Assembly (NCBI GenBank): GCA_041742075.1
Contig: JBGSJJ010000015.1
Coordinates: forward strand, 65,132 to 129,131
Origin: Minisyncoccia bacterium
GTDB taxonomy: Bacteria > Patescibacteriota > Minisyncoccia > Phycocordibacterales > UBA918
Length of the DNA stretch: 64,000 nucleotides
Reading direction: 5' to 3'
Shown: piece by piece, positions 21,342 through 39,511 of the stretch
Layout of the letters: each line of letters begins with the position of its first letter
Numbering within the stretch: the first letter of the stretch is position 1
Program-made: the position numbers and the translations under genes
The notes under the pieces: model-generated
What the model saw: only the letters and a program-made list of their open reading frames with translations
Told to the model about the DNA's origin: nothing
Database searches by the model: none

Positions 21342-21482
21342 AATGCTGAAAACTATACCATACCGAACGGACGCTCGGCGACGTTGACGAGAGGAGTGAA
21401 GAGCGTTGCAATATATAGCGTCTTGAGTCGGCATATGTAGAGTACAAAAACAGGCCCCAAGGTGGGGCCTGTCAAAATGTAC

Positions 21483-22720: not shown

Positions 22721-23446
22721 TTAGTGAAGGTGGATTTTTTTGGCGCGCTCAGAGTGGAACTCTTCAGCGGTCTCAGATATCTTTTCGATATCTTCCTCTT
22801 CTGATTCCCCTATCTGGACCTCCAAGATGTCGAGGTCGGTGTTTAGTGGAGCAGTGGGTGCGTGCCATACACCAGGTAGGTTAATGTGCACTTCCCCATT
22901 TGGCATAAAGAAGAACTCACTCCGCTTATTGTGGCGCTGAAGAGAAAGTGTCTTCCCCGCTTCGATATGGAGCATTTTTACCTTAAGCTTCGGGAGATCA
23001 AGGACGACGTCATAAAAACCCCAGCGGGTTGGTACTCTCTGGCGTCCGTTAATAGCTGAACTCGAACTATACTTTCCGCCCCCCACCTCGAACACTGGTT
23101 CAATACCAAGCTCCGCGCAGACATCAAGCTCAGGTGTGTTGTCTTTCTTGCGGTCGCCTCCGTTTCCAAAGTAATCAGGCTTAATCCGCCGCAAAGCCTC
23201 ACAGACAGTGCCATCACTATCGTCTACCTCATAGACATACGGCGTATAGGCTTCGAGGATTTTTTTTCGGTCGGTAAATGGTTGGAAAAAGAAACCTTTC
23301 TTTCTAATGAGCCAGTCGTCACTGTTTACCACAATATGTACGTCACCGTACTTCTGCGCATCTTCAATCATGGCAATGTGTCCAGGATGAATCGGGTCAA
23401 AACCGCCTGAAATAACGATGGACTTCTTTTTTGGTTCGGTACTCAT
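22721..23446 (-). CDS. Bidomain protein: cytidylyltransferase-like nucleotidyltransferase (HxGH motif) plus C-terminal cupin. Start is probably the Met at 23446.
   Basis: SIVISGGFDPIHPGHIAMIED is the (T/H)xGH motif of the RfaE-domain-II/glycerol-3-P cytidylyltransferase class. C-terminal KTLSLQRHNKRSEFFFMPNGEVHINLPG is cupin-like. Confidence 0.6.
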   Translation of the reverse strand: MSTEPKKKSIVISGGFDPIHPGHIAMIEDAQKYGDVHIVVNSDDWLIRKKGFFFQPFTDRKKILEAYTPYVYEVDDSDGTVCEALRRIKPDYFGNGGDRKKDNTPELDVCAELGIEPVFEVGGGKYSSSSAINGRQRVPTRWGFYDVVLDLPKLKVKMLHIEAGKTLSLQRHNKRSEFFFMPNGEVHINLPGVWHAPTAPLNTDLDILEVQIGESEEEDIEKISETAEEFHSERAKKIHLH

Positions 23447-23571
23447 ATATATGTATAGTGAATTAACTAATAGCGACAAAGGTATTACTGATTGTAACCT
23501 CCCGACCTCATTCTGGGTTACAACTAAGGTCAATATAAGCGACCGCTGGAATTAATAAGTAACTGTGATAG

Positions 23572-24675
<1,104 letters not shown>

Positions 24676-24762
24676 CAACTACCTAGGTAATACTGCAGTA
24701 ATGACAAAGACAGCCCGGCAACGAAGTTGCCGGGCTGTCTTTGTCACAAGCTTAGTTTAAGA

Positions 24763-25020
24763 CTACTCATACAGTTCGCTATGAGACCCTATCTCAAGAA
24801 AAATGACGGACTGATTATCATAGATAAAAATCGCACGATAGTCAGCACTAACGTTTAAACTGAGGCAGGGGTACCTAACTCCTTGAAGCGTATGAATATG
24901 GAGTAAAGGATGGTTTGGATACTCAAGAAAAATTGCCAACCGGTCTGTAAATTGCTTTTGCACTTTTTTTGGTAGCTTCTTATACTGCTTTTTAAAGTGC
25001 CGATGAAACGAAACTTCCAT
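24763..25020 (-). CDS. Type II toxin, RelE/ParE (YoeB-like) family
   Basis: 85 aa. FKKQYKKLPKKVQKQFTDRL...LHIHTLQGVRYPCLSLNVSADYRAIF matches the RelE/ParE fold pattern. Stop lies 4 nt after the upstream antitoxin gene. Confidence 0.7.
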   Translation of the reverse strand: MEVSFHRHFKKQYKKLPKKVQKQFTDRLAIFLEYPNHPLLHIHTLQGVRYPCLSLNVSADYRAIFIYDNQSVIFLEIGSHSELYE

Positions 25021-25023
25021 GAA

Positions 25024-25296
25024 TTATTTTGCGAGCCAAGCCTCAGCTTGAGCTTTTGAAGAAAAACCTTTTGAGACATGCTTTCCTGCTCGCGCTTCGG
25101 CGATATGCTTTTCGAGCTTTGCCAACACAGCCGGTTTGAGTTGTGGCTCACGCGCCAAGGTAAAGGCACCTGAACGCACAAACTCATGTAAGTAGGCATT
25201 GACCACAGTTGAGAGTGGTACTCCTAAGTATTCAGCGAGCGCTTGCGCTTGCTCCTTAACTAGCTTATCGGTCTTTATGTTTAAGACAGTTTTCAT
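25024..25296 (-). CDS. Type II antitoxin, RelB/DinJ family
   Basis: 90 aa. MKTVLNIKTDKLVKEQAQALAEYLGVPLSTVVNAYLHEFV is a RHH/DinJ-like N-terminus. Immediately upstream of the RelE-like gene. Confidence 0.62.
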   Translation of the reverse strand: MKTVLNIKTDKLVKEQAQALAEYLGVPLSTVVNAYLHEFVRSGAFTLAREPQLKPAVLAKLEKHIAEARAGKHVSKGFSSKAQAEAWLAK

Positions 25297-25357
25297 AATC
25301 TAACCATTGTATACACAACGGTTATTTTGTCAATCATGTAATGTATATAAAATTCAA

Positions 25358-25380
25358 CCCCATCCGCGTAGCGGATGGGG
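25358..25380 (-). terminator. Terminator hairpin downstream of the HD-like gene. Member of a repeated hairpin family (see 26221..26247).
   Basis: ccccatccgc gta gcggatgggg. Minus-strand reading is followed by TTGAATTTTAT. Confidence 0.5.
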
Positions 25381-25430
25381 TCTTGGTTTGAGTGGAAGCG
25401 TTTTGTTTCCTTGGCTTCGGCTAGAAAAAT

Positions 25431-26195
25431 TTAATTGTACATCTCATAATACTCGCCGAGAGCTTGCTTGATATCGTCCTCAGACTCGTTTAGAACATTG
25501 TGTCGACGAGCAATCTCGGCTCCAAAAGCTCGCACGAAGGATAGATATGCTCGCATGTCCTTCTCATCGATAAGGCCACGAGCAGTATCCGAAGGCAACA
25601 TACCTACCCACTCAATCATTCGAAACAGGTTCTGGTAGACGGTCTTCATCTGCCCTTCAACCGTCGTACCGTAGCCAAACGGATTAGCCGGGTCGTACAG
25701 AGGCATCGAGGCACTATGTGCTACACCAGAGACGATTCCGAGCGGACCGAGGCGGTCAAGCTTGTCGGCAATACGCAGTGCGGTAAGCAGAGGTGTATCG
25801 TTCGGCTCATCGTCTTTCTTGCTGTGCTGAAGAACCGCATCAATGATTCTCGCCCGCGCCATATAGTCAAACCGGCTTTCTTTAAGCAGATACTCGAGCA
25901 AATGGTTAAGGGGTATGAGTTTTTCAACCCCTCTCACCATACTCAAACGGTCGAGATTGTGGAGCCAGACCGCCGCCTGGTATTCACCCTGATCAAACGA
26001 AAGCTGAGTCGCTCGCCTGATACGCTCTCCAAGCGCGACCATACGATGCACATGCTCCACATCGTGCCCACCAGGAGCGTTCGGCATCGTATAGAGTGGC
26101 CCGAGTTTAGCTTCAAGCTCTTTAAGAAAACCACGCACTTTTTTCTCCTCATAGAGCACGACCACCGCGCTTTTCCAAGTACTCTTATACAACAT
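25431..26195 (-). CDS. Hypothetical protein, possibly an HD-superfamily-like hydrolase (weak)
   Basis: 254 aa. H..H (HDVEHVHRM), LHNLD and ADKLDRLG spacing loosely resembles HD motifs. Not conclusive. Confidence 0.4.
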   Translation of the reverse strand: MLYKSTWKSAVVVLYEEKKVRGFLKELEAKLGPLYTMPNAPGGHDVEHVHRMVALGERIRRATQLSFDQGEYQAAVWLHNLDRLSMVRGVEKLIPLNHLLEYLLKESRFDYMARARIIDAVLQHSKKDDEPNDTPLLTALRIADKLDRLGPLGIVSGVAHSASMPLYDPANPFGYGTTVEGQMKTVYQNLFRMIEWVGMLPSDTARGLIDEKDMRAYLSFVRAFGAEIARRHNVLNESEDDIKQALGEYYEMYN

Positions 26196-26220
26196 TATAC
26201 ATAAAAATCAACCCCACCCG

Positions 26221-26247
26221 CGAAACTTGCGGATGGGGTCTTGATGT
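26221..26247 (-). terminator. Terminator hairpin downstream of the Dabb-like gene. Near-identical to the 25358..25380 hairpin.
   Basis: ccccacccgc gaaactt gcggatgggg. Minus-strand reading is followed by TTGATTTTTAT. Shares the flanking caacccca...ggggtcttg with the other copy. Confidence 0.5.
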
Positions 26248-26272
26248 GTTCGCTTGAAGCGGACGGGGCGCG

Positions 26273-26752
26273 TCAGCGGATTTTAATTCTTAGACTTTGA
26301 CTTGGTGAATAGACCCCTTTATCGCCTTCCTCAAGCGAAAGTTCGGTGTTTCGGGTGTAGGCCTCCAGATAAGAGCCTTCACCGAGCGGGTTAATGGCTA
26401 CATCGGAGACCACCCAATGTTCGGCCAACCCGGCAATTTTCTGGCCGAAGGCGACGTGGTCGGGATGGGCGTGGAAGTTGATGAAGGCTTCTGGGCCTGC
26501 AAACAGCCCCACCTCGACCCAGCCATACCCCTTACGCTGGTCGATGTTCGGCCGGACAGAGAAAGACTTGATGCCCGCCTTAGCTCCTCCGCACAGCTTG
26601 TGGAGCGCGGCGCACTCTGCCATCACTGCTATCTGCTCCTCCTCGGTGACATCCGCTTTGAACTTGAACGTCACAATGTGAAGCAGGTCGGCATCACTCG
26701 GGACACCATCTCGGATAAAAGTGTAAAGTGGGTTTTCAGTTACTTGCGTCAC
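26273..26752 (-). CDS. Stress-responsive alpha/beta-barrel (Dabb)-like protein (weak)
   Basis: LHIVTFKFKADVTEEEQIAVMAECAALHKL is reminiscent of the Dabb domain. 159 aa. Confidence 0.4.
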   Translation of the reverse strand: MTQVTENPLYTFIRDGVPSDADLLHIVTFKFKADVTEEEQIAVMAECAALHKLCGGAKAGIKSFSVRPNIDQRKGYGWVEVGLFAGPEAFINFHAHPDHVAFGQKIAGLAEHWVVSDVAINPLGEGSYLEAYTRNTELSLEEGDKGVYSPSQSLRIKIR

Positions 26753-26862
26753 GGCGTTTCTCCTTTGGCTGACGTACCGGTACTTTCCACATTACAGCAC
26801 AACCTAAGCCAAAAAGCCATACCTGTCACCAAATGCCGACAGATAGTGTTATAATCGTCATC

Positions 26863-27792
26863 ATGGAAAAAACCGCTAAAATCTATGTCGCTGGCCATAG
26901 AGGTCTCGTTGGCTCAGCGCTTATTCGCTCACTTCAAAAGAACGGCTACACCAACCTCATTACCAAAACTCGAGCTGAACTCGATTTGCTCGACGCACAA
27001 GCGGTGGCCAACTTCTTCGCTACCGAAAAACCGGAGTATGTTTTTCTGGCCGCCGCTAAGGTTGGTGGCATAATGGCCAACAAAACCTACCCCGCTGACT
27101 TTATCTTTGAAAACCTCAGTATTCAAAACAACGTCATCCATAGTGCGTATGTATCGGGTGTTAAAAAGTTACTCTTTCTCGGCAGTTCTTGTATCTATCC
27201 AAAACTAGCCCCGCAACCGATTAAAGAAGAGTACTTACTTACTGGTCCACTAGAACCAAGCAACGACGCGTATGCCATAGCAAAAATTGCGGGCATTATG
27301 ATGTGTCAAAGCTACAAGCGCCAATACGGTAGCAACTTCATCAGCGTGATGCCCACCAACCTCTACGGAGAAAATGATAACTTTGACTTAGAAACGAGTC
27401 ACGTCCTCCCCGCTCTCATTCGTCGCTTCCATGAAGCCAAGGAAAATAGTGTGCCGAGTGTTACCCTCTGGGGTTCGGGCACCCCGATGCGTGAGTTTAT
27501 CCATGTAGACGATATGGCTCTAGCTTGCCTCCATCTAATGGAAACCTATAACGAAAGTGAGATTGTGAATATCGGCACAGGCGAAGACGTCACTATCAAG
27601 GAACTAGCCGAGACCGTGGCAAAGGTAGTCGGTTACCAAGGAGAGCTCTTGTGGGATACGAGCAAGCCTGACGGCACTCCTCGCAAGCTTCTTGATGTAT
27701 CCAAACTACACGGACTTGGCTTCAAGCATACGATTCAGCTTGAAGACGGCATCCGTGATACATATGAATACTACAAAAAAGTTACTGTTTGA
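26863..27792 (+). CDS. fcl: GDP-L-fucose synthase (GDP-4-keto-6-deoxymannose 3,5-epimerase/4-reductase). ATG at 26863; the track's 26833 start is an upstream in-frame extension.
   Basis: [33 protein letters not shown]...[19 protein letters not shown]...YAIAKIAG is canonical Fcl/WcaG. Confidence 0.92.
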
Positions 27793-27794
27793 GT

Positions 27795-28973
27795 ATGATT
27801 CTCTATTTTGATACTTTCATAACTGAAACTCCGCTTCACAAAAAAGCTCCACCTAAAGATGACGTGCGAGATAAGCACGATATCTATCGGATGCCAAGTA
27901 AAATTGAAATAGCTAAATATTCCTTAGCGAGTTATTCAATATTTTCGTGGTCAAATGTATATATCAAATACGAACTAGAAGATACTAGTCTTACTCTTGA
28001 ATTTGATAATTTTATAAAAGAACTTTTTCCTGAAGTAATTATTGAACATGAAAGAAGTGACTCACAATCTGATTACCAAAATTCTTTAGCAACGCTTAAG
28101 AAATTAAACGACCCGTGGATATTTTACTCTCCTAATAATGATCACCCGTTATTGATTAGTCAAAAAACAGATACCGAATACATCAAACGTTTGGTTGATA
28201 AAGCTGAACAATGGCGAGCTCTTTTTCCGTTTGTTTCTATTATTTATTCCCATTTTGAAGAATACATTAATGCTCCATACCCAAATAGTGCTAATCACCG
28301 CTTCTTTGGTAAAGACATGGTTCTCTTACATGAAGATGACGAGGTCATAATTTGTCTCAAAAAACACGGGGACTTTAATTCAGTTCAAATTGTACACATT
28401 GACTTGTTTTCACATTGGTTTACTTCAAGTGATTTATCCGCTTCAGTCGTTAGGCGGGCGGAAGATTTACATCAAGTGGAAGTAAAAAATCATATCCTGA
28501 TTATACCGAAAAAAAGACTATGCGCGCATTTTGATGGGTATGAGCATATGCAAGGTACCGCAAATGAAATCCTGCAGGATACAAGCCCAGTCCTTTTTAT
28601 CCCACCTGGTTTTTTTGATAAAAAAATTAAAATTGCTTATGGGTATAGTCAGCGGAAAAATGGTTACACAAATATTAATCCAGGAACAAAAAAATATAGT
28701 TTCAGAAATTCAACAACCGGGACTGATCTGAAATTAAGCTTAGCTGAAATACCTTTATTTTGGAAAGACAGAATTAAAGAAATAGATATTAACCCTCACG
28801 CAAACCATCAATTGCTGAACAAAATGGCTAGAGTACATTTTGCAAAACAAAAATATCCTTGGAGTGTTTTTAGTAGAGGACTAAATGGTAAAAATTTTAT
28901 CTTTCAAATTAAGCGGGGTCTAAGGTTTATTAGAGATGAATTTATTACAAAGCAAGGAATACTTCAGAAATAA
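27795..28973 (+). CDS. Hypothetical protein (393 aa), first gene of the AT-rich block, function unknown
   Basis: Long ORF immediately after the fcl stop (track start 27789 is TTG; ATG at 27795). No family recognised. Confidence 0.5.
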   Translation: MILYFDTFITETPLHKKAPPKDDVRDKHDIYRMPSKIEIAKYSLASYSIFSWSNVYIKYELEDTSLTLEFDNFIKELFPEVIIEHERSDSQSDYQNSLATLKKLNDPWIFYSPNNDHPLLISQKTDTEYIKRLVDKAEQWRALFPFVSIIYSHFEEYINAPYPNSANHRFFGKDMVLLHEDDEVIICLKKHGDFNSVQIVHIDLFSHWFTSSDLSASVVRRAEDLHQVEVKNHILIIPKKRLCAHFDGYEHMQGTANEILQDTSPVLFIPPGFFDKKIKIAYGYSQRKNGYTNINPGTKKYSFRNSTTGTDLKLSLAEIPLFWKDRIKEIDINPHANHQLLNKMARVHFAKQKYPWSVFSRGLNGKNFIFQIKRGLRFIRDEFITKQGILQK

Positions 28974-29111: not shown

Positions 29112-30746
29112 ATGAAAACAAAGGGGTCCACAATAGCCGTAATCCCCGCCGCTGGTATACCTACCAACAAGCTAAACATCCACTCCAACACACCCGATAC
29201 GATGTTGCCCATAAATGGTAAGCCAGTTATTGGTCATATTCTTGATGACCTACTCGCGCGAAAAATTTATCGAGCAGTCATTGTTCTAAACGAACACGAC
29301 CTACACACAGAAAAATATGTCAATCGTAAATATTCTTCCAAACTTAAACTTTCAATTGTACGAAACGCTCTTTATGGTCGGGGTCTCGGGTACTCAATTT
29401 ATCTGGGTTGTCGAGAAATAAGCGACCTTGAATCCTACGATGGAATACTAGTTTATTTAGGAGACACAATTTACAAAGGTGACTTAGACTTTAGTAAAGA
29501 TTTCGTAATTATCAACTCAAATCTAGTGAACAGTCAAAGGTGGTGTTATGTTGAAGAATCCCCTACTGGCCTTACCTATATAAATAAACCCTCCGAATAC
29601 GTTGGCGCTGGAAACCCTTTGGCCGGAATCTATTATTTTTCAAATCCTGAAAAATTAAATAGTGTTGTGAGTAGTGTGGTAAAACGAGAAGCTATTGTTG
29701 AACTTCATTTTATCCTGAGTATATACAATCAACACTTCGCATTAAAGCAAGCTGAACAACACTATGATTGTGGCAATATTGAAAACTATTATCAGGCACG
29801 AATAGACTTTTTACGTACCCGGAGTTTTAATACACTTGAATACAACGATCTGTTTGGAACTATTACAAAATCAGGCACGAATCGAGATAAAATTGAGGAT
29901 GAAATTAACTGGTTTAAGAATGTCCCTCATGAGCTACAAATCTTTACACCCAGATTAATCGATTACACTATTAGTGAATCCAAAGTTTCATATTCTCTAG
30001 AATACTATGGGTATCAGTCTTTAGCGGACTATTTTGTTTTAAATCAATTTGATGAAAAGGTTTGGCAAGTTCTTATTGACCGTCTTTTTACTATACTTAG
30101 TCTGTTTAAAAATTACTCGACACCACTTCCGCACCGAGCGTTTTATGAAATGTATGTAGAAAAAGTAGAAGCTCGAATCAAATTACTAGAGCAAGACGCA
30201 ACCTGGAAAGAACTTCTTTCTAAAGAAACACTTACGATCAATTCGGGTACATACCTTGGCTGGCCCACATATGCTTCTAAAATTTCAAGCTTTGCTGATT
30301 ACCTCTATGATTCCTCAACAGCCAGTTTTATTCACGGAGATTTATGTTTAAGCAACATTCTGTTTGATCCTCATACGTTACTGATAAAACTAATCGATCC
30401 ACGTGGCAAGTTTGGAGACTACACTGTCTATGGCGATCATAACTACGACCTAGCCAAGTTACGACATAGCTTTGTGGGGCTGTATGATTTTATTGTGAGT
30501 GATTTATTTATACTCGATGAGCATGAGAATACATTTCAATACCAAGTACTTTGCGACAAGGACCATGTCGAAATTGGTGAATTATTTGACGCTACTTTAC
30601 AAAAAAGAGGCTATAATACCACTGCGGTTATGTTAATCGAAGCTCTTCTTTTTCTGTCTATGATTCCACTCCATAGTGAGGCCCCAGTTCGACAAAAGGC
30701 AATGTTCTTAACTGGAATTCAACTCTTAAATAAAATTGAACTATGA
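29112..30746 (+). CDS. Bifunctional fusion: N-terminal sugar-phosphate nucleotidyltransferase domain plus C-terminal APH/choline-kinase-fold kinase domain
   Basis: N-terminus STIAVIPAAGIPTNKL...LPINGKPVIGHILDDL is NTP_transferase-like. C-terminus FIHGDLCLSNILFD...IDPRG is the Brenner motif HGDLxxxNIL of APH/choline/hexosamine-1-kinases. Stop overlaps the next gene's ATG (ATGA). Confidence 0.6.
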   Translation: MKTKGSTIAVIPAAGIPTNKLNIHSNTPDTMLPINGKPVIGHILDDLLARKIYRAVIVLNEHDLHTEKYVNRKYSSKLKLSIVRNALYGRGLGYSIYLGCREISDLESYDGILVYLGDTIYKGDLDFSKDFVIINSNLVNSQRWCYVEESPTGLTYINKPSEYVGAGNPLAGIYYFSNPEKLNSVVSSVVKREAIVELHFILSIYNQHFALKQAEQHYDCGNIENYYQARIDFLRTRSFNTLEYNDLFGTITKSGTNRDKIEDEINWFKNVPHELQIFTPRLIDYTISESKVSYSLEYYGYQSLADYFVLNQFDEKVWQVLIDRLFTILSLFKNYSTPLPHRAFYEMYVEKVEARIKLLEQDATWKELLSKETLTINSGTYLGWPTYASKISSFADYLYDSSTASFIHGDLCLSNILFDPHTLLIKLIDPRGKFGDYTVYGDHNYDLAKLRHSFVGLYDFIVSDLFILDEHENTFQYQVLCDKDHVEIGELFDATLQKRGYNTTAVMLIEALLFLSMIPLHSEAPVRQKAMFLTGIQLLNKIEL

Positions 30747-31816
30747 GAATAGTTATCGACCTTGATGGCACCATAGCGTCACTACGAAAGCATAACCAAG
30801 ACTACAGTGAGGTTACACCTTTACCCGGAGTAGTTGAGAAGTTAACTACTTTAAAGGAAGACGGTCACTACCTCATTATCTATAGTGCACGTCACATGAA
30901 GACATGTCAGGGGGACGTTACATTAGTAGAGCAGAAAATCGGCAAGAAAACGAGGGAGTGGCTTAGCACATACAAGATTCCCTACGATGAGCTTATTTTT
31001 GGTAAACCATACGGACATGTCTATATTGATGACCTGGCTATACCATTTCGTGGCTGGGAAAACATTCAATCCACTGAGCTTGATACTGATGTCATCAATG
31101 TGGTAATACCTATGGCTGGTTTAGGAAGTCGCTTTACAAAAGCTGGATTTACTACCCCAAAACCACTCATTGATGTACTTGGCCAACCAATGGTTAAGTG
31201 GGCAGTTGATTCTCTTTCTTTTTTACCTAAACAACCAGTCCAACTTATTTTTATTATTTTACGTGAGCACGAAGTACAATATGAACTTTCAAAGCAACTG
31301 CGCTTGTTGTTTGGTAGCCATATTAAAGTCATTCAAGCTGAGAAATTAACATTAGGACAGGCTGATACAGTCTACCTCGCTAAAGATTTTATAAATAATT
31401 TTAGTAAATTATTTATTTTTAACTGTGACACGTTCAGCCAAACACCGGATTTATGGGAACATATTACTGAGATTGACCCAGACTGTACCTTAGCTTGTTT
31501 TACGTCCACCGACGCACGCTATAGCTACGCAAAACAAGATTCGTACGGCTACGTTGAAGAAACAGCTGAGAAAAAGGTTATTTCTAACAACGCCTCTACT
31601 GGTCTGTATTACTTCAAACATGGCTTCTACTTTATCGATGAAGTAGAAAAAGCGCTTCAGTCATACCAACCAGACCAAGGTGAAATTTACATCGCTCCAC
31701 TGTATAATAATCTGATAAAACTGGGAAAAAAGGTGACTATTTCAGAGGCTAGTGAAAACTGGATACTTGGGACACCTGAAGAACTGGATTATTTTAAAAC
31801 CCACTACCGAAAGTAA
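30743..31816 (+). CDS. Bifunctional fusion: N-terminal HAD-superfamily phosphatase (DxDGT) plus nucleotidyltransferase domain
   Basis: MRIVIDLDGTIA (HAD motif I), IYSAR (motif II), GKPYGHVYIDD (motifs III/IV). Then VVIPMAGLGSRFTKAGFTTPKPLIDVLGQPMV is an NTP_transferase G-loop. Confidence 0.6.
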   Translation: MRIVIDLDGTIASLRKHNQDYSEVTPLPGVVEKLTTLKEDGHYLIIYSARHMKTCQGDVTLVEQKIGKKTREWLSTYKIPYDELIFGKPYGHVYIDDLAIPFRGWENIQSTELDTDVINVVIPMAGLGSRFTKAGFTTPKPLIDVLGQPMVKWAVDSLSFLPKQPVQLIFIILREHEVQYELSKQLRLLFGSHIKVIQAEKLTLGQADTVYLAKDFINNFSKLFIFNCDTFSQTPDLWEHITEIDPDCTLACFTSTDARYSYAKQDSYGYVEETAEKKVISNNASTGLYYFKHGFYFIDEVEKALQSYQPDQGEIYIAPLYNNLIKLGKKVTISEASENWILGTPEELDYFKTHYRK

Positions 31817-31860: not shown

Positions 31861-32520
31861 ATGCAATTTATATCTAAAACAAAATACAAAATAAAACTCT
31901 TATTTACAGATCCGGTGAAATTAGCTGGCATACTAAAAAATATGCTAAAAATGGCCTTTGTAAGTAAGGTTGATACTGGCCCTGAAGGGATACGGTGGAC
32001 TACTGAAATTGAAAAAAACCTCTTACAAAAATATGCTAAAAGTGCCCAGATTGGAATCGTAGAAATTGGTGTACTTGATGGAAAGACTACCAAGGAAATG
32101 GCCCTCGTTGCCAATGTGCCACTTTATGGAATCGACCCTCTGATACCAGACAGTATGAATAGAAGATTAATCGGTACGGAAGAAAAAGTTTTATCAAACT
32201 TAGCCTTTTATGAAAAATTTTATTTTATAAAAGACTTTAGCTACAACGTGGCCAAAAACTGGAGTAAACCTTTTGATTTTATCTTTATAGATGGTGACCA
32301 CACCTATGAAGCCGTAAAAAAAGATTTTGAAGACTGGTACAACCTCATCTCTCCTCAAGGATTCATTGCATTTCATGACTCTCACGCAATCACCGTTGAT
32401 GGGAAAGAAGTATTTGCCGGCTGGGCTGGTTGCGTACAATTTGTTTCAGAGTTAAAAGATGACCCTCGAGTTAACTTTGTAGAAGTGCAAGATTCGATTA
32501 CTGTTTTTCAAAAAAAATAA
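31861..32520 (+). CDS. Class I SAM-dependent methyltransferase (CmcI / Methyltransf_24-like)
   Basis: IVEIGVLDGKTT...FDFIFIDGDHTYEAVKKDFEDW...GFIAFHD. Confidence 0.65.
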   Translation: MQFISKTKYKIKLLFTDPVKLAGILKNMLKMAFVSKVDTGPEGIRWTTEIEKNLLQKYAKSAQIGIVEIGVLDGKTTKEMALVANVPLYGIDPLIPDSMNRRLIGTEEKVLSNLAFYEKFYFIKDFSYNVAKNWSKPFDFIFIDGDHTYEAVKKDFEDWYNLISPQGFIAFHDSHAITVDGKEVFAGWAGCVQFVSELKDDPRVNFVEVQDSITVFQKK

Positions 32521-33829: not shown

Positions 33830-34693
33830 ATGAAATCAAAAGCCCTCATCACCGCCTGTTCAAACAAATTCTTTCCGTCGGTTATAAACCTCCTGACCTC
33901 AATTAAGGTTAATTACCCGGACCACCCAGTCATTTACGTCTATGACTTAGGTCTTTTCTACACCTTTAGGAAAGAGCTGGAGATGATTGATGGTGTAACC
34001 GTACTTCCCATGCCTCATTTTTGCTCTCACTGGAGATCTTGTTACACCTGGAAAACATATATTTTTGCGCACCCCATCGCTGACCTCAACTTCTATCTCG
34101 ATGCAGGCTGTCACGTACTGAAACCCCTTGATGCCGATTTTGCTATCATTGAAAAAGACGACGTACTCTTGATTGACCAAGAGCAAACCTTTGCAGACAT
34201 CGTGCCAAAAAGTTACAAAGAGATGTTTGCTATAGGAGACGAGTTTGACACACTGACCATCATGCACGCCGGTATCATTGGTTTCAGCAACAGCGAAGAA
34301 GCCGGTCAGATTTTTGCAAAAATCTATTCCGCTGGTATTGCTGGTCTAGCGCTTGGGTTTTCTCCAGGTGATAGTTGGCGAAATAAAGGCCCCGATAAAT
34401 CTGTATTTGTGCGTGATTGTCGCCTATTCCGGCACGACTTAACCTTAGTAAATATCTTTTTCAGAAAGTACTGGCCTCATATAAGCATTCAGTCCCTAGA
34501 GACCTACCACGGCGGGCTACTCAACTCACCCACCCAGCGTATATGGCACCTTCGGCTCAATTGGAAACGGTTGCCATACATGTCAATTAAGAAAATTCAT
34601 CCCAAAGTAAGCTTTTTCCCTTTTATAAATCGTATAATTATTGTAAAAATGGTTTATTTAAGAAAGATATTTCATTACCTGAAAGGTATTTAA
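33830..34693 (+). CDS. Hypothetical protein, possibly a nucleotide-diphospho-sugar (GT-A-like) transferase
   Basis: 287 aa. Start LITACSNKFFPSVINLLTSIKVN and YLDAG resemble GT-A capsule transferases. Weak. Confidence 0.4.
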   Translation: MKSKALITACSNKFFPSVINLLTSIKVNYPDHPVIYVYDLGLFYTFRKELEMIDGVTVLPMPHFCSHWRSCYTWKTYIFAHPIADLNFYLDAGCHVLKPLDADFAIIEKDDVLLIDQEQTFADIVPKSYKEMFAIGDEFDTLTIMHAGIIGFSNSEEAGQIFAKIYSAGIAGLALGFSPGDSWRNKGPDKSVFVRDCRLFRHDLTLVNIFFRKYWPHISIQSLETYHGGLLNSPTQRIWHLRLNWKRLPYMSIKKIHPKVSFFPFINRIIIVKMVYLRKIFHYLKGI

Positions 34694-34707: not shown

Positions 34708-35661
34708 CTATTTTTCAATTAATTTCGATAGCTCTAAACAAATTCCCTCAACTGACGTGTACTCTGGAGTATACCCAACACTCTCTGCTTGATAGTTTTT
34801 TGAATAATAGATATTTTTCGAAAATTTATTGCCACCTCGAATTGGGTCAGATGAAATTTCATATCGTAAATCAAACTTTTCTTGAAGCTCATTAAGCAAA
34901 TCGAGCTTGGCTACCGGAGCCTTGCTGTAAACATCTAAGGCCGTGTTGCTTGGTGACCGCATAACACATTGAATGAGTTGATGGAGGTCAGTAGGCGAAA
35001 TATAGTCCCGAATGATATCGGTGTCGTTGGTTTTAAATACCTTATTGGAAATAAGGCAATCAGCAATCTCTGACATCAAAAATTCAGCTTCCGTATCGAC
35101 AAACTTACTAAAAAACGCAAATACGCGCAAATCGATGATGGTATAGTTTGCTAGTGCACGATGTCTCGCTTCAGCATGTAACTTAGCAATCGAGTAGTAC
35201 TCCGATACCTTGAACTCATTAACAGAGAAGGTGGCTTTGGTTTCTTCTGTTATAGGGGCACTAAAATTATCTCCATACACCGCCCCACTACTCAGGTTGA
35301 TGTACACTGCTTCGGGATTTTTTCTTAAGTAAGAAAGAATGAGTGTGTCAACAGATTCAGTAAGGGTAAAAATACTTGCCGGCTCGTCACCCAATACTTT
35401 TGTATTTCCGATTCCTGTCGCGTTAATGATCACATCAAAGCTCCCGTATTGAAACTCTGATATGTCGCAAAGTCTAATTAAACGCCCTTTTTCAATATCT
35501 TTAAAATCTAAAATAGTTTTCTCTAATTTTGAAATGTCTCGCGAATAAAGGTAGAGCTCAGTGTCAGAGTTATTTACTAAAAACTCTGCGAGTAGTGATT
35601 TCCCGATATAGCCGGTCGCTCCCAAAAGCGCCAGTTTTCTAACATTAAGATTACTTGTCAT
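34708..35661 (-). CDS. NAD(P)-dependent epimerase/dehydratase-family (extended SDR) protein
   Basis: LALLGATGYIGKSL is a Rossmann motif. YSIAK is YxxxK. 317 aa. Confidence 0.7.
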   Translation of the reverse strand: MTSNLNVRKLALLGATGYIGKSLLAEFLVNNSDTELYLYSRDISKLEKTILDFKDIEKGRLIRLCDISEFQYGSFDVIINATGIGNTKVLGDEPASIFTLTESVDTLILSYLRKNPEAVYINLSSGAVYGDNFSAPITEETKATFSVNEFKVSEYYSIAKLHAEARHRALANYTIIDLRVFAFFSKFVDTEAEFLMSEIADCLISNKVFKTNDTDIIRDYISPTDLHQLIQCVMRSPSNTALDVYSKAPVAKLDLLNELQEKFDLRYEISSDPIRGGNKFSKNIYYSKNYQAESVGYTPEYTSVEGICLELSKLIEK

Positions 35662-36286
35662 TCGATTGTATGAATTTTAGTACATCCTGAAACTTGTTTG
35701 CTGTTACAGAAGGTTGTGCATTAGCTAATACTTTTGGAGTATGAAAACCCCAAGTTACAGCGATGGTGACAACACTAGGTACCCTGCTGGCTTCCAGCAA
35801 ATCCCCAACTGTATCGGTAACAAAAAACACTCTATCTATATTAGGTGACGTAACAGCTTTCTCCAAAAAATAACTTTTTTGCTTTTTACTGTGTCCTATT
35901 ATTTTAGTAAAAAAATTCTGGAGCTGGTTAGCCTTGAGAATTTTTTTAATATGAATTTCAGGCGCTGTACTCAGTATCCATAACTCCCCTTGTCTACTTA
36001 TACTCTCAAGTAAAGAGGTGGCTTCTGGAAAAAGTTTAACCCTATCTGCATTATAGAAGTCTGCAAAAATTTTATGTTTTAATTTTATAAAATTCTCCAG
36101 TTCTGTTTCACTTAAGTTAAAAATTGCGCCAAGATTTTTATTTAAAGGGCCATAAAATGCTTTTCTGTATTGTGATTTTGAAAGATGATACCCCATTGCC
36201 AAACCAGCAGACATGTTGATTTGATACAGATTATCAAATGAATCTGCTAAAACTCCATCAAAATCAAAAACAATTATCTGCTTCAA
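35651..36286 (-). CDS. HAD-family hydrolase (phosphoglycolate-phosphatase-like)
   Basis: MKQIIVFDFDGVLADS is motif I. 211 aa. Overlaps the downstream SDR gene by 11 nt. Confidence 0.7.
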   Translation of the reverse strand: MKQIIVFDFDGVLADSFDNLYQINMSAGLAMGYHLSKSQYRKAFYGPLNKNLGAIFNLSETELENFIKLKHKIFADFYNADRVKLFPEATSLLESISRQGELWILSTAPEIHIKKILKANQLQNFFTKIIGHSKKQKSYFLEKAVTSPNIDRVFFVTDTVGDLLEASRVPSVVTIAVTWGFHTPKVLANAQPSVTANKFQDVLKFIQSNDK

Positions 36287-36296
36287 ATTTGTAAAA

Positions 36297-36839
36297 TTAA
36301 AAACGAGCTATTAAAGCTTTCATGAATACTCCAATATCTCTTGGGTGACGTGAAGTAATAATGTTACCATCTTCGACTACTGGTTCATCAATATATGTTG
36401 CTCCCGAATTAACGATATCGTCCTTAATACCCACATAGCCAGTTGCCTTTTTCCCTTTCAATAGTCCAGCAGAAATTAAGACCCACGGCCCATGACAAAA
36501 AGCGGCTACTAATTTATTTTCGTTTGCCATCGCATTTACGAATTCAAGAACTTCAGGTATCTGACGGACTCGATCTGGAGCTTCAAAGCCTCCCGGAATA
36601 AGGACCATGTCATAGTCTGAAGTACTCAATTTTTTGGCATCTACTAATTTCCCATAGTATCTAACCATCAACTCCAAAGGGAAATTTAATCGTCCTACTA
36701 CAAGCTTTGCATCTTTCGTGGCAATATCAACTTCAAAACCTTCTTCATGAAGCCTCATTATTGGATACATAACCTCTTCATCCTCAAACGCCTCAGCAGT
36801 GATAATGACAACTCGGTTTGTTTCTCTATTTATTTTCAT
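36297..36839 (-). CDS. DJ-1/PfpI-family protein (class I glutamine-amidotransferase-like; deglycase/protease family)
   Basis: VLIPGGFEAP...KLVAAFCHGPWVLISAGLL has the nucleophile-elbow Cys in the AFCHGP context. Confidence 0.8.
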   Translation of the reverse strand: MKINRETNRVVIITAEAFEDEEVMYPIMRLHEEGFEVDIATKDAKLVVGRLNFPLELMVRYYGKLVDAKKLSTSDYDMVLIPGGFEAPDRVRQIPEVLEFVNAMANENKLVAAFCHGPWVLISAGLLKGKKATGYVGIKDDIVNSGATYIDEPVVEDGNIITSRHPRDIGVFMKALIARF

Positions 36840-36878
36840 ACTTTGTGAGTTATTGGCCTTTAAATTTTGATATTATAA

Positions 36879-38687
36879 TTAATTAGAAAAAGTAATGTCA
36901 TCTGCCATATTTTTTTCAAATTCTTCTCTTTCCAAAAAAGGAAACATGTCTTCAAGTGGCTTACTTACCATTGTGCCGTCAGCCAATTTTTCTGAATACA
37001 CTTTAGGCCATAGTGGTTGAGTAGGTGACATCTTTATGTTGCAGAGCACCGGTCCAGGATAACTTAAAGTCTCTTCTATTATTTGTTTTATATTGGAATG
37101 ATCATTTATCTCTAAGTAACCAATACCAAATGTCTTTGCAACATCCTTAAAATCTGGAAAGCTAACACCACTTTCTTCATCCACCGCTACTAAATTACCT
37201 CCAAAAAAGGAATTCTGGGTATTTTTAATGGCCAAATATCCATTATTGTTAATAAGAAATATTTTTAAAGGTATTTTGTAGTGCTTAATAGTTTGGAGTT
37301 CTTGCAAATTCATCATAATACTACCGTCTCCAGTCAATAATGTAATTCTATCTTTACCTGTCGCAAACCAACCTCCTATAGCTGAAGGCAAATCGTACCC
37401 CATAGAAGCACAACCTACACTGCTGAATAAACGTTGATCTTTCTGTACCTTAAATGACTGGAGAGTGCCCGTGAATGAAGTTCCAACTCCGGTCATAATG
37501 ATGTCACCTTCAGTCAAACAATCTGAAAGTACTTCAGTAAAATAGTAAGAATTGACGTATTCTTTTTCATCTTTATACGACGGTAAAATTACCGGATATT
37601 TCTCCTTCCAGTCAATCACACGAGTAATCCAAGCGTCAATATCTGTTTTCTTTTCAGCACTGGTTAATAATTCAGTAATAAAAAGCTTTGCGTCACAATG
37701 TATAGCTACATCAGGGACAACAGTTTTTTTATTTAATTCATTTATGTCGATTTCAACAACTACTTTTGTAGCATTTCGAGCAAACTCCTTGTAGTTGTAG
37801 CCTACATTCCATAAGTGATGACGTGCTCCAATACTGATAAGCAAATCAGCGTTTTGAATAGCGAAGTTACCTGCACGGTCTCCAAATACACCTGGTCTAC
37901 CAGCAAACAGTCTATGATTTGTAGGAATGAGATCATGGGCTGCCATTGCAGTAAGTATCGGAACGTTCAGTTTTTCTGCCAGCTCTAGAAATTCTTTATG
38001 AGCTCCTGATAAACGAATCCCGTACCCAGCAAAGATTAATGGTTTCCGAGCATTTTTAATGAGCGATAACACATGAGTCATCTGATCCTTAAACTCAGGC
38101 GATACTGGAACCAGTAAATTCTCCTTTTCAGGATCAAAAGACTTAATTGCATCTAGATCAACCTCACACGTCTGAATATCAGAGGGAATATCTAATAAAA
38201 CAGGGCCAGGACGCCCTGATTTTGCCAGAAATACTGCCTTTTCTAAATGATATCGAATATCATTTGGATCATCCACAATTTCACAATACTTTGTGATAGG
38301 TTTAGCTATATCAACAATATTTATTTCTTGTACTCCCAACTGACGTAAGTCTGTATTTGTCATCATAACTTCTCGTTTGACTTGTCCAGACAAATATAGA
38401 GTAGCGATTGAATCAGTCCAAGCCCCCATAATGCCAGTTAGAGTGTTAGTAGCAGCCGGGCCGACAGTGGTCACACATACACCAATGTTTCCCCCTACTC
38501 GACCATAGGCTTCAGCAGCCATTGCACAGGCTTGTTCATGGTGGTTAGAAATATTCAATAAATCTTTATGTTTACTGATGGCATCAATCATGCTGACATT
38601 ACCGCCACCAGGAATTAAAAAAACATGTTTCACCCCCAGAGAAGCAATATAATTGGCAATATAATCAGAAACTTTTATTTTTCTCAT
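36879..38687 (-). CDS. Thiamine-diphosphate-dependent enzyme of the acetolactate-synthase/YerE-like family
   Basis: 602 aa. N-terminal Pyr domain (YIANYIASLGVKHVFLIPGGGN), central domain, C-terminal PP domain with GDGSIMMNLQEL (the TPP-binding GDG-x24-NN motif). Confidence 0.8.
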   Translation of the reverse strand: MRKIKVSDYIANYIASLGVKHVFLIPGGGNVSMIDAISKHKDLLNISNHHEQACAMAAEAYGRVGGNIGVCVTTVGPAATNTLTGIMGAWTDSIATLYLSGQVKREVMMTNTDLRQLGVQEINIVDIAKPITKYCEIVDDPNDIRYHLEKAVFLAKSGRPGPVLLDIPSDIQTCEVDLDAIKSFDPEKENLLVPVSPEFKDQMTHVLSLIKNARKPLIFAGYGIRLSGAHKEFLELAEKLNVPILTAMAAHDLIPTNHRLFAGRPGVFGDRAGNFAIQNADLLISIGARHHLWNVGYNYKEFARNATKVVVEIDINELNKKTVVPDVAIHCDAKLFITELLTSAEKKTDIDAWITRVIDWKEKYPVILPSYKDEKEYVNSYYFTEVLSDCLTEGDIIMTGVGTSFTGTLQSFKVQKDQRLFSSVGCASMGYDLPSAIGGWFATGKDRITLLTGDGSIMMNLQELQTIKHYKIPLKIFLINNNGYLAIKNTQNSFFGGNLVAVDEESGVSFPDFKDVAKTFGIGYLEINDHSNIKQIIEETLSYPGPVLCNIKMSPTQPLWPKVYSEKLADGTMVSKPLEDMFPFLEREEFEKNMADDITFSN

Positions 38688-38691
38688 ACAT

Positions 38692-39459: not shown

Positions 39460-39511
39460 CGTTATCTAAATACTAAACTTCAATTTCCTAAAGCAAAATA
39501 ATAAAAATAAA

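Follow-up and report, generated by a model that had tools for sequence, protein, structure and literature searches.

Two overlapping genes in the genome of a Minisyncoccia bacterium raise the question of what they activate together. They lie in a 64,000-nt stretch of one contig (the window, in what follows), and a preliminary description had read them as a self-contained activation route for a sugar or phospho-substituent, with a kinase, a phosphatase, and two nucleotidyltransferase (NT) modules spread over two polypeptides. We asked which parts of that picture hold, which substrate the enzymes would act on, and in which order.

Domain architecture of the gene pair

The two genes, denoted ORF A and ORF B, and their domains are located as follows (window coordinates):

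29112..30746, plus strand: ORF A, a KfoE family member with an NT-like domain and an APH-fold kinase (544 aa; ORF and translation)
29112..29816, plus strand: ORF A residues 1–235, NT-fold domain with degenerate catalytic motifs (Foldseek, sequence match, alignment)
29817..30743, plus strand: ORF A residues 236–544, small-molecule kinase of the APH/methylthioribose-kinase fold (model, Foldseek, invariant residues)
30743–31816, plus strand: ORF B, HAD phosphatase fused to a canonical sugar-1-phosphate NT (357 aa; ATGA overlap with ORF A)
30743..31087, plus strand: ORF B residues 1–115, capless HAD phosphatase of the EcbF/BcbF, 1xpj family (TIGR01689, 1xpj, K4 HAD)
31088..31816, plus strand: ORF B residues 116–357, canonical sugar-1-phosphate NT of the 4evw family (PF00483, 4evw, conserved motifs)

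Both ORFs were confirmed at these positions on the plus strand, together with the ATGA overlap first described (ctATGAgaa, containing the TGA stop of ORF A and the ATG of ORF B). The ATG start of ORF A at 29112 is backed by alignment with its homologs, which begin at the same position; an alternative TTG start at 29076 would add 12 residues. The NCBI copy of ORF A is 514 aa long and covers 94% of the 544-aa query, a coverage suggesting that the missing residues are N-terminal. We found >1,183 ORF A homologs, nearly all of them ∼540 aa and full-length, and the nearest come from CPR/Patescibacteria MAGs with reduced metabolism. The AlphaFold model of the whole of ORF A was confident (pLDDT 89.4, pTM 0.85), and Pfam, Foldseek, and motif comparisons bore out the proposed architecture of an NT-fold domain with an APH-fold kinase in one protein and a HAD phosphatase with an NT in the other.

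The C-terminal part of ORF A has the hallmarks of an active kinase. The Pfam APH model matched residues 256–451 at 19 bits, under its cutoff of 23.2. The AlphaFold model of residues 235–544 (pLDDT 93) was closest by Foldseek to 5-methylthioribose (MTR) kinase (2pu8, E 8e-7), with APH(3') enzymes and ethanolamine kinase also among the best matches (TM ∼0.5, identity ≤15%; 2pu8, 4h05, 4feu, and 2qg7 spanned E 8e-7 to 1e-4). The domain contains the motif FIHGDLCLSNILFD, and K253, E264, H408-G409-D410, N415, and D429 (IDPRG) vary little or not at all across 79 homologs. These residues supply the beta3 Lys, alphaC Glu, HxDxxxxN loop, and Mg-binding Asp of the kinase superfamily; with the catalytic Asp and Asn intact, the earlier caution that the region might be no kinase at all fell away. 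No close characterized relative of the kinase was found in PDB sequence and fold comparisons.

Both domains of ORF B keep their catalytic motifs. The N-terminal domain matched TIGR01689 (EcbF-BcbF) at 72 bits, with a subfamily cutoff of 162, and PDB 1xpj at E 1.9e-14. Its HAD motifs I (DxDG(T/V)), II (S/T), III (K), and IV (DD) are all present, with D6, D8, G9, S/T48, R50, K88, D96, and D97 invariant or near-invariant across 63 homologs. The C-terminal domain matched PF00483 at 42.7 bits (cutoff 21.2) and PDB 4evw at E 1.5e-24, and carries the GxGxR motif, PK Lys, metal Asp, and EK motif expected of PF00483. The key residues R130 (MAGLGSRF) and K140 (PKPLI) were found in 75 and 77 out of 77 homologs, respectively, and R130, K140, D229, and E276-K277 were each kept in 72–77 of the 77.

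The N-terminal domain of ORF A has the fold of an NT and degenerate catalytic motifs. Pfam NTP_transf_3 matched residues 31–121 at 28 bits (cutoff 27). Foldseek returned GalU, RmlA, GMPP, and LicC (E 1e-9 to 5e-11), with GMPP and VTC1-KJC structures (PDB 7d72, 8yre) also listed, and the best PDB sequence match was LicC (1jyk, E 7e-5). The signature Arg and PK Lys of sugar-1-phosphate NTs are missing, however: AAGIPTN replaces GxGTR and TPD replaces xPK, placing N19 at the canonical Arg site and D29 at the canonical Lys site, and none of the 79 homologs has R or K at these sites. The domain is therefore not a canonical pyrophosphorylase, and the two NT modules of the preliminary description reduce to one canonical NT, that of ORF B. 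Several other positions are invariant in the 79 homologs (L116-G-D118-T119, W144, K159, G172, Y174, and D219xG221), and the domain is probably a pseudo-NT or ligand-binding module. Its role would probably be non-catalytic, either binding a sugar phosphate or NDP-sugar, regulating, or scaffolding, in partnership with the active NT.

Non-catalytic NT paralogs that regulate an active partner have precedent in GMPPA, GalF, and KONJAC. As in the pairs GMPPA/GMPPB, GalF/GalU, and KONJAC/VTC1, the ORF A domain retains the NT fold together with a conserved pocket while lacking the catalytic Arg and Lys; it differs in being fused to a kinase, and its pairing with the ORF B NT is proposed by analogy. 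The domain order of ORF A had also been likened to that of Bacteroides FKP. The fusion of an NT-fold domain to a kinase stands, but the kinase is of the APH and not the GHMP fold and its NT-like partner is without catalytic residues, and we rejected membership in the FKP family on these grounds.

A choline- or ethanolamine-type alcohol, converted by a LicC/LicA-like route into a CDP-alcohol that decorates a glycan, would account for the LicC match and for the source name "choline kinase" carried by some ORF A homologs; LicC-LicA fusions are found in Treponema. We consider such a cargo barely credible, as the LicC-like domain is without catalytic Arg and Lys, ORF A has no Pfam Choline_kinase match, neither LicB nor LicD turned up in the scanned window genes, the ORF B NT is of the sugar-1-phosphate type (EKK and GT motifs), the HAD phosphatase would be left without a role, and the capsule encoded by the homologous K4 locus (see below) is described only as fructosylated chondroitin (PMC3673904).

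A conserved cassette in bacteria and archaea

ORF A and ORF B are the fused form of a conserved cassette, composed of an A gene, a small HAD gene, and an NT gene, and are not an orphan pair. The A family comprises at least 2,112 clusters at 50% identity (E ≤ 1e-30) from bacteria and archaea. We sampled 79 species genomes and counted genes within 2.5 kb of the A gene. Separate HAD and NT genes flank A in 48 out of 79 loci and a fused HAD-NT gene does so in eight; the remainder have an NT without a HAD (16), a HAD without an NT (four), or neither (three). A HAD adjoins A in 60 out of 79 loci, and the 16 loci with an NT but no HAD may mean that the phosphatase step is optional. With A, HAD, and NT encoded by three separate genes in most genomes, the two ORFs are not pieces of a single enzyme split by a frameshift, a concern raised at the outset. 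The NT-like domain is always joined to the kinase.

Rosetta-stone fusions elsewhere join the components in further ways. An NT is fused in front of A in P0405 and behind it in P0469 and P0447, and in P0469 a HAD gene lies directly upstream of the A+NT fusion. Along with the conservation of the cassette across the 79 genomes, these fusions support a joint activation route, in line with the self-contained pathway first envisaged.

Joint activation need not start from a sugar phosphate. In a salvage pathway, the APH-fold kinase would phosphorylate a free sugar (hexosamine, MurNAc, or other) at C1 and the NT would activate the product, leaving the HAD with some other task, such as proofreading or a step that follows transfer. 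Pairs of an APH-fold anomeric kinase and an NT are known from AmgK/MurU and NahK, and the 16 out of 79 loci with no adjacent HAD would suit such a scheme. Yet the HAD adjoins A in most loci and is here fused to the NT, the MurU model reached only 20.7 bits where its cutoff is 250, no specific similarity of the kinase to NahK or AmgK appeared among the PDB sequence or fold matches listed, and the experimentally anchored loci (next section) serve de novo capsule and LPS biosynthesis. We judge salvage quite improbable.

Neighboring genes hint at the kind of substrate. A Planctomycetes variant carries A joined to a complete RibB domain (whose substrate is ribulose-5-P), and the same locus has a transketolase and a transaldolase/fructose-6-P aldolase, indicating ketose-phosphate chemistry around the cassette. 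The RibB-fused variant also suggests that some family members handle other substrates. No sugar-modifying enzyme accompanies the cassette among the neighbor genes of the 79 loci, consistent with a substrate drawn straight from central metabolism.

Relatives of the cassette in fructose-containing glycan loci

Region 2 of the Escherichia coli K4 capsule locus carries, between kfoD and kfoF, a HAD of 126 aa, a 522-aa protein, and an NT of 241 aa. These belong to the same three families as the domains of the window pair and are likewise adjacent on one strand. ORF A shares 28% identity with the 522-aa protein over its full length (BLASTP, E 2e-46), and the corresponding values are 33% (E 1e-29) for the ORF B NT and the 241-aa protein and 35% (E 2e-18) for the ORF B HAD and the 126-aa HAD. 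The invariant kinase residues of ORF A are all common to the 522-aa protein. The arrangement differs: K4 has three separate genes in the order HAD-A-NT, whereas the window has A followed by a fused HAD-NT, and the K4 genes form part of a capsule locus of the kps type (group 2, ABC-transporter), whereas in the window there are a flippase of the Wzx type and a putative O-antigen-like cluster. We take the K4 HAD to be orf3/kfoI and the 241-aa NT to be orf1/kfoH, and our use of kfoE for the 522-aa ORF follows its place in the gene order and the published list of genes, not a named sequence.

The kfoE gene has been reported as responsible and required for the addition of fructose to the K4 capsule (PMC3673904), and KfoE is termed a fructosyltransferase in the literature, not a kinase. 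Neither the 522-aa protein nor its 527-aa counterpart in Vibrio cholerae has a significant Pfam match, which is probably why their kinase and NT-like nature went unremarked.

The V. cholerae counterpart lies in the LPS-core wav cluster, where the gene order is waaA, HAD (1xpj), 527-aa protein, NT (4evw), and WavE. The 527-aa protein shares 46% identity with its K4 counterpart of 522 aa and 26% with ORF A (E 8e-43; the ORF A alignments to the K4 and V. cholerae proteins span residues 28–538), and the 247-aa NT is 32% identical to the ORF B NT (E 3e-29), while the HAD is the 1xpj protein matched above. Here again the genes are separate, and they sit in a core-oligosaccharide locus between waaA and wavE/kdkA. 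The V. cholerae LPS core contains fructose, and from this composition we infer that the cassette serves the core fructose. Two out of three V. cholerae cassette proteins have structural-genomics crystal structures without an assigned function.

Two further organisms add to the picture. Pasteurella multocida capsule types B and E bear fructose side chains, BcbE/F/G are predicted to add fructose to the type B capsule, and bcbE and bcbG mutants lose the fructose (PMC13552107). The link from the window to bcbE-bcbF-bcbG (ecbF) runs through the ORF B HAD domain and the name of its model TIGR01689 (EcbF/BcbF), matched at 72 bits against a subfamily cutoff of 162. In Campylobacter jejuni, the "activation and transfer" of fructose is said to need HS1.08 (PMC11924219).

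The window pair thus shares with the KfoE-type cassette a full-length A homolog, an adjacent HAD, and an adjacent 4evw-family NT, with the HAD fused to the NT. The preliminary description was aware of no characterized example of these fusions; full-length homologs at the K4 kfoE position (PMC3673904) and in the V. cholerae wav cluster show that the KfoE family is already known genetically, with mutant-type evidence for a role in fructosylation limited to K4 kfoE and P. multocida bcbE/bcbG. We found no enzymology for the family in the literature, although our search for NDP-fructose was narrow and could miss a recent paper.

A proposed route to an activated ketose

Our preferred reading, to which we assign a probability of roughly one half, is that the cassette makes an activated fructose-type sugar donor for a surface glycan, passing from fructose-6-P through fructose-2,6-bisphosphate and fructose-2-P to NDP-fructofuranose. 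The substrate would be a ketose phosphate from central metabolism, whose anomeric O2 the APH-fold kinase of ORF A would phosphorylate, converting fructose-6-P to fructose-2,6-bisphosphate. The ORF B HAD would then take off the distal 6-phosphate to give fructose-2-P, which the canonical NT of ORF B would join to an NTP, the presumed nucleotide source, to form NDP-fructofuranose.

Several observations favor this reading. MTR kinase, the best fold match of the ORF A kinase, phosphorylates the anomeric hydroxyl of a furanose. The cassette occurs in two fructofuranose-glycan loci, and the model of its HAD family takes its name from proteins of a third. The invariant catalytic residues in the kinase, the HAD, and the ORF B NT also favor ketose activation. 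On the other hand, identity to the K4 and V. cholerae proteins is only 26%–28%, and sugar specificity may differ in the ORF A subfamily.

The same enzyme logic could serve a cargo other than a ketose, as a mutase bypass leading from an aldose-6-phosphate (Man-6-P, Glc-6-P, or GlcNAc-6-P) or a pentose-5-phosphate to an NDP-sugar. The low identity to the fructose-linked homologs, the size and diversity of the family, the reduced metabolism of the nearest CPR/Patescibacteria relatives, and the RibB-fused variant, in which substrates evidently can differ, all leave room for this. But each experimentally anchored occurrence we found is a fructose-glycan locus (PMC3673904; PMC13552107), the invariant kinase residues are shared with the K4 protein, and there is less reason to expect a dedicated cassette of three enzymes for aldose-1-phosphates, which phosphomutases normally supply. 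We view a non-ketose cargo as unlikely.

The sequence of kinase, distal phosphatase, and NT is the established logic of NDP-heptose synthesis (HddA/GmhB/HddC and HldE/GmhB), and HldE is itself a kinase-NT fusion. The proposed ketose route would share this logic of anomeric kinase, HAD phosphatase, and NT as a mechanistic analog, not as a family member: heptose kinases are GHMP- or ribokinase-like in fold, whereas the ORF A kinase has the APH fold. We rejected membership in the NDP-heptose pathways on the basis of this fold, an HddC score of 18–24 bits against a cutoff of 300, and the absence of GmhA from the genes covered. Scanning of the window genes turned up neither a SIS isomerase/GmhA nor a GHMP kinase, and no SIS isomerase/GmhA was evident in the large neighbor clusters of the 79 loci. 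With the MurU score and the lack of LicB/LicD given above, the cargoes floated in the preliminary description (phosphocholine, phosphoethanolamine, heptose, and those of AmgK/MurU and NahK) have lost their footing.

We tentatively extend the ketose reading to the family, with a little less conviction than an even chance would warrant: the KfoE cassette may be a general, so far undescribed ketose-activation route, built from an APH-fold "ketose-phosphate 2-kinase," a capless HAD, a dedicated NT, and a pseudo-NT hand-off module. Fructose-2,6-bisphosphate or analogous ketose bisphosphates would then be biosynthetic intermediates in bacteria and archaea, the product would be an NDP-ketofuranose, and the pseudo-NT domain on the kinase would bind product, regulate, or hand off. 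If so, fructofuranose-type decorations would be far commoner than the few pathogen glycans known to carry them suggest, with >2,000 clusters across CPR bacteria, Bacteroidota, Planctomycetota, Myxococcota, Thaumarchaeota, and Asgard archaea.

Transfer to the glycan and neighboring genes

In the ketose route, a separate transferase would add the sugar to the glycan, and two neighbors in the window are candidates. They are listed here with a third gene of the locus:

27789..28973, plus strand: upstream 394-aa protein, no Pfam/NCBIfam match, putative transferase
31861..32520, plus strand: downstream methyltransferase (Methyltransf_24, Pfam 58 bits), same direction as the cassette
33830..34693, plus strand: 287-aa protein, no significant Pfam match, second putative transferase

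Neither candidate is related to KfoD or WavE (by hhalign for the 394-aa protein). Across the loci examined, no one specific transferase family is a constant companion of the cassette.

This last observation would be explained if ORF A were itself the fructosyltransferase, its kinase making the precursor and its degenerate NT-fold domain (of the GT-A fold class) binding the NDP-sugar from ORF B and transferring the sugar. The domain is missing the Arg and Lys that activate the NTP while keeping an invariant pocket (LGDT, K159, D219), it never parts from the kinase, fructose addition has been attributed to kfoE (PMC3673904), and HS1.08 is credited with both activation and transfer (PMC11924219). 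Foldseek nevertheless groups the domain with nucleotidyltransferases (GalU, RmlA, GMPP, LicC) and not with glycosyltransferases, the regulatory paralogs GMPPA, GalF, and KONJAC offer a precedent for its loss of catalysis, and candidate transferases adjoin the cassette in each anchored locus, in the form of WavE, KfoD/KfoG, and the 394-aa protein. We hold direct transfer by ORF A to be distinctly unlikely. It is compatible with the ketose-activation pathway, in which only the role of the N-terminal domain would change.

The neighbors recur in the closest loci. Homologs of the 394-aa protein adjoin the cassette in L004, L005, L011, and L042, and the 287-aa protein co-occurs with it in L005, L011, and L042. 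The Methyltransf_24 gene, whose product may modify the sugar, also follows the cassette in L005.

Two overlapping fusion genes

Both genes of the preliminary description were borne out, with their fused domains and ATGA overlap. Its interpretation held in part for the architecture but not for the proposed cargoes; the phosphocholine (LicCA), AmgK/MurU, NahK, FKP and heptose readings were rejected, the proteins falling outside those families.

Features of the gene pair
29112-30746, + strand: ORF A, 544 aa from the ATG; nucleotidyltransferase (NT)-fold domain (residues 1-235) and APH-fold kinase (residues 236-544)
30743-31816, + strand: ORF B, 357 aa; HAD phosphatase (residues 1-115) and canonical NT (residues 116-357)

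The stop codon of ORF A and the start codon of ORF B overlap at the junction ctATGAgaa. An alternative TTG start at 29076 would add 12 residues to ORF A; the ATG at 29112 is the position at which its homologues start in the alignment. The NCBI and Logan copy of ORF A is 514 aa long (94% coverage of the 544-aa query) and appears to have been called from an internal start, M31, which would drop the NT-like domain's initial strand (29112-29201).

A conserved cassette of kinase, phosphatase and nucleotidyltransferase

ORF A belongs to a large family (hereafter, the A family). More than 1,183 homologues were found, nearly all of ~540 aa, and a profile of the family run against 1.84 billion representatives recovered at least 2,112 clusters at 50% identity (E ≤ 1e-30). 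A scan of species-representative genomes gave 547 relatives, from Patescibacteria, Bacteroidota, Planctomycetota, Myxococcota, Chloroflexota, Thaumarchaeota, Methanosarcinales and Asgard archaea. We then called ORFs in 79 of these loci and used the four domains as queries to look for partner genes up to 2.5 kb from A.

Genes flanking A in 79 loci
Separate HAD (~120 aa) and NT (~240 aa): 48
Fused HAD-NT: 8
NT without HAD: 16
HAD without NT: 4
Neither HAD nor NT: 3

The fused HAD-NT form (353-386 aa) makes up at least 120 clusters at 90% identity, so the fusion seen in ORF B is a common one. Other fusions join NT to A (protein P0405) or A to NT (P0469 and P0447), with a HAD gene directly 5' of P0469. 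Together, these Rosetta-stone fusions and the synteny indicate that kinase, phosphatase and NT form one functional unit; the pair is a conserved cassette rather than an orphan fusion. In one further A-family protein (P0393; 830 aa), a TIR domain (Pfam TIR_2, 75 bits) stands at the C terminus, so that a sugar-activation enzyme is oddly combined with a domain of immune type.

The closest loci are in Patescibacteria metagenome-assembled genomes (47%-54% identity) and have a gene order in common: fcl, a 394-aa protein, A, B, a methyltransferase and a 287-aa protein. The ~400-aa proteins upstream of A in two other loci (L001 and L002) were considered as counterparts of the 394-aa protein of the window and are not homologous to it, and hhalign gave no relation of the 394-aa and 287-aa proteins to KfoD of E. 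coli K4 or WavE of Vibrio cholerae. Clustering of neighbors across the 79 loci returned generic polysaccharide genes alone (GT4, GT2, flippase, acetyltransferase, methyltransferase, asparagine synthase and NeuB-like), the profile of the GT2 cluster being itself generic. No sugar-modifying enzyme was found to travel with the cassette among these neighbor genes.

Counterparts in Vibrio cholerae and E. coli K4

The HAD domain of ORF B matched the NCBIfam model TIGR01689, "EcbF-BcbF capsule biosynthesis phosphatase," which pointed to Pasteurella multocida. A sequence search with 1xpj, a V. cholerae HAD structure, recovered 126-aa HADs (P0245-P0364) that are 80%-100% identical and occur in Vibrio, Photobacterium, Shewanella, Aeromonas, Ferrimonas, Zobellella, Marinobacter and one Proteus mirabilis plasmid. 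Such identity is unusually high for a glycan gene and suggests a recent horizontal spread of that cassette subtype.

In V. cholerae the HAD gene is part of the wav cluster for the LPS core: it follows waaA and precedes the genes for a 527-aa and a 247-aa protein, then those for WavE and the Kdo kinase. ORF A is matched along its whole length by the 527-aa protein (26% identity, E 8e-43), and the 247-aa protein is the NT of known structure 4evw (32% identity, E 3e-29 to the NT of ORF B). The core oligosaccharide of V. cholerae carries fructose.

Megablast of both window genes against E. coli genomes gave no match. The K4 link emerged through a "distant" search, in which DNA of the V. cholerae cassette matched 124 E. 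coli genomes. The locus of E. coli E597 belongs to the kps group-2 capsule type, and its region 2 agrees with the published K4 gene list.

Region 2 of the E. coli E597 capsule locus, in order
1: galE-like epimerase
2: hypothetical protein, 546 aa
3: GT2, 686 aa
4: IS3-family element
5: hypothetical protein, 477 aa
6: HAD, 126 aa
7: hypothetical protein, 522 aa
8: protein labelled "GT2," 241 aa
9: nucleotide-sugar dehydrogenase
10: GT2, 446 aa

The 522-aa protein aligned with ORF A over its full length (28% identity, E 2e-46) and shares 46% identity with the V. cholerae 527-aa protein. The 241-aa protein is an NT (33% identity, E 1e-29 to the NT of ORF B), and the two HADs share 35% identity. 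The K4 capsule is a fructosylated chondroitin, its fructose addition being credited to kfoE (PMC3673904); gene order would make the 522-aa ORF kfoE.

In E597 (locus L087), the RefSeq annotation of the 241-aa, 4evw-family NT at 13820-14545 reads "glycosyltransferase family 2 protein," and that of the 522-aa ORF in the kfoE place reads "hypothetical protein." Both labels hide the enzymology of the cassette. Neither the K4 522-aa protein nor the V. cholerae 527-aa protein had a significant Pfam match, and no solved structure was found for the A family, which is probably why its kinase nature went unnoted in the accessible papers.

The window pair is thus the fused, non-enterobacterial form of a cassette known from kfoE and its neighbors. 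The preliminary description had taken the fusions to be uncharacterized. Genetically the family is known; biochemical characterization was not found in the literature reached, and the chemistry of the cassette is not described in the papers accessible to us. Papers from 2025-2026 go no further than genes "involved in" or "required for activation and transfer" of fructose (PMC13552107, PMC11924219). Literature searches on 4EVW, 1XPJ, 9IQW, TIGR01689, NDP-fructose, the H. influenzae type e locus and V. cholerae wav fructose returned nothing usable, the NDP-fructose terms being narrow.

Predicted activities of the domains

The motif set of the ORF B phosphatase, a capless HAD, is complete (D6xD8GT, S48, K88, D96-D97). 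In the NT domain that follows, R130 (in MAGLGSRF) is kept in 75 of 77 homologues and K140 (in PKPLI) in all 77, with D229 and E276-K277 likewise conserved. Judged by these motifs, the C-terminal domain of ORF B is a canonical sugar-1-phosphate NT.

The C-terminal half of ORF A scored 19 bits with Pfam APH (cutoff 23.2), and sequence and profile searches against the PDB gave weak catalytic-loop matches alone (best APH 6fuc, E 0.03). A separate AlphaFold model of this domain (pLDDT 93) was matched by Foldseek to 5-methylthioribose (MTR) kinase (E 8e-7), APH(3') and APH(2'') enzymes and ethanolamine kinase, at a TM-score of ~0.5 and no more than 15% identity. The domain is accordingly an APH/ELK-fold kinase that lacks a close characterized relative. 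Its catalytic positions (K253, E264, H408-G-D410, N415 and D429, the last in IDPRG) are invariant in all 79 A homologues. Plasmids of E. coli, Aeromonas, Legionella and Phaeobacter carry relatives of the kinase domain alone (PLSDB matches H38-H44), labelled "aminoglycoside phosphotransferase family protein" or "capsular biosynthesis protein." These align to ORF A residues ~170-542 or 234-529, with the NT-like domain mostly or wholly absent; a Citrobacter plasmid match (H38) begins earlier, at residue 91.

The N-terminal half of ORF A has a nucleotidyltransferase fold. It matched Pfam NTP_transf_3 (28 bits) and the LicC structure 1jyk (E 7e-5), and the full-length AlphaFold model (pLDDT 89.4, pTM 0.85) resembles GalU, RmlA, GMPP and LicC (E ~1e-10). 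AAGIPTN replaces the canonical GxGTR and TPD replaces xPK; at the catalytic Arg/Lys positions, none of the 79 A homologues has a basic residue in the alignment. Invariant in the same 79 are LGDT (116-119), W144, K159, G172, Y174 and D219xG221. From sequence, we read the domain as a probable conserved ligand-binding pocket lacking canonical pyrophosphorylase chemistry. It could be the fructosyltransferase itself, a role that fits the label given to KfoE in the literature. Our preferred reading is that it would bind a sugar phosphate or NDP-sugar and serve the active NT as a regulator or scaffold. Non-catalytic NT partners have precedents in GMPPA with GMPPB and GalF with GalU, and structures related to these were among the matches of the ORF A model.

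A candidate route to an activated ketose

The anomeric carbon of a ketose is C2, so that a phosphomutase, the usual means of making a glycosyl phosphate, cannot serve here. The lack of a sugar-modifying enzyme with the cassette points to a substrate drawn from central metabolism. MTR kinase, the best structural match of the ORF A kinase, phosphorylates the anomeric hydroxyl of a furanose. On these three grounds we propose a route from fructose-6-phosphate, each step of which is conditional: the ORF A kinase would form fructose-2,6-bisphosphate, the HAD of ORF B would convert this to fructose-2-phosphate, and the NT of ORF B would yield NDP-fructofuranose. NDP-heptose pathways follow the same established logic of anomeric kinase, distal phosphatase and NT. 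We give ketose activation roughly even odds (a probability of about 0.5).

A Planctomycetes variant bears on the choice of substrate. Two A-family proteins (P0461 and P0407) are fused to a complete RibB (3,4-dihydroxy-2-butanone-4-phosphate synthase) domain, an enzyme whose substrate is ribulose-5-phosphate. The locus of this variant (L088; Planctomycetes MAG JACQVS010000240.1, 382-10407) is an operon with a split transketolase, methyltransferase, Zn-ADH, epimerase, NT, HAD and transaldolase/fructose-6-P aldolase, and may encode enzymes that lead to an activated ketose, or deoxy-ketose, of an unusual kind. RibB, transketolase and transaldolase were restricted to this one variant in the 79-locus neighbor survey. 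The fusion lends circumstantial support to ketose-phosphate substrates of the cassette. It also suggests that substrates may vary within the A family, which counts against the fructose route, as do the low identity of the window proteins to their K4 and V. cholerae counterparts, the 16 of 79 loci with no HAD adjacent to A, and the reliance on gene order in naming the K4 ORF kfoE.

Activation of fructofuranose for bacterial capsules and LPS appears unsettled in E. coli K4, P. multocida B/E, the V. cholerae core and C. jejuni HS:1, and the domain reading (pseudo-NT plus APH-fold kinase, HAD and canonical NT) makes it directly testable. Biotechnological production of chondroitin includes a step that strips fructose from the K4 polysaccharide, and in haemorrhagic septicaemia strains the cassette contributes to capsules on which virulence depends. 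A family this broad would also draw attention to a sugar so far missed in glycans of uncultured bacteria and archaea.

Genomic setting in the window

Both ORFs lie in a stretch between ~28 and ~50 kb of the window that is rich in polysaccharide genes and has a low GC content (34%-42%, versus ~48%). Upstream of ORF A are gmd and fcl, each above its NCBIfam cutoff; downstream of ORF B follow a methyltransferase, a Wzx-type flippase and several proteins with no assigned family, and farther on GT2, GT10, GT11 and GT-D transferases and FkbM methyltransferases.

Other features of the window
23584-27792 and 47100-54315: gmd, fcl; GT10 and GT11 fucosyltransferases, GT-D fold transferase, two FkbM and one DUF268 methyltransferase
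34708-42210, - strand (operon), and 42495-43733, + strand: second sugar pathway, adjoining the cassette
22721-23533, - strand, beside gmd: 270-aa protein, cytidylyltransferase-like domain and mannose-6-P isomerase C-terminal cupin

The gmd and fcl genes, with the fucosyltransferases and methyltransferases, point to a heavily fucosylated and methylated glycan. The second pathway (34708-43733) comprises a glucose-1-P cytidylyltransferase (416 bits) and a CDP-glucose 4,6-dehydratase (445 bits), both above cutoff, an RfbH-like PLP enzyme (353 bits, under its cutoff of 423), a 602-aa acetolactate-synthase-like ThDP enzyme, a DJ-1/PfpI protein, a HAD and an epimerase, and looks like a route to a CDP-3,6-dideoxy or branched-chain (yersiniose-like) sugar. 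The architecture of the 270-aa protein is unusual; its cytidylyltransferase-like domain matches RfaE domain II weakly. Finally, a CPR-type host is suggested by the Patescibacteria MAG origin of all the closest homologues of the pair, taken with the window flanks (1313-9619, 19155-21434 and 58829-62332), which hold a 2,768-aa ORF, a 759-aa Wzy_C and TPR protein, a lamin-tail/PKD surface protein and a TrwB/HerA-like ATPase, which neighbor GatB, a short Obg, SecA and MurB.
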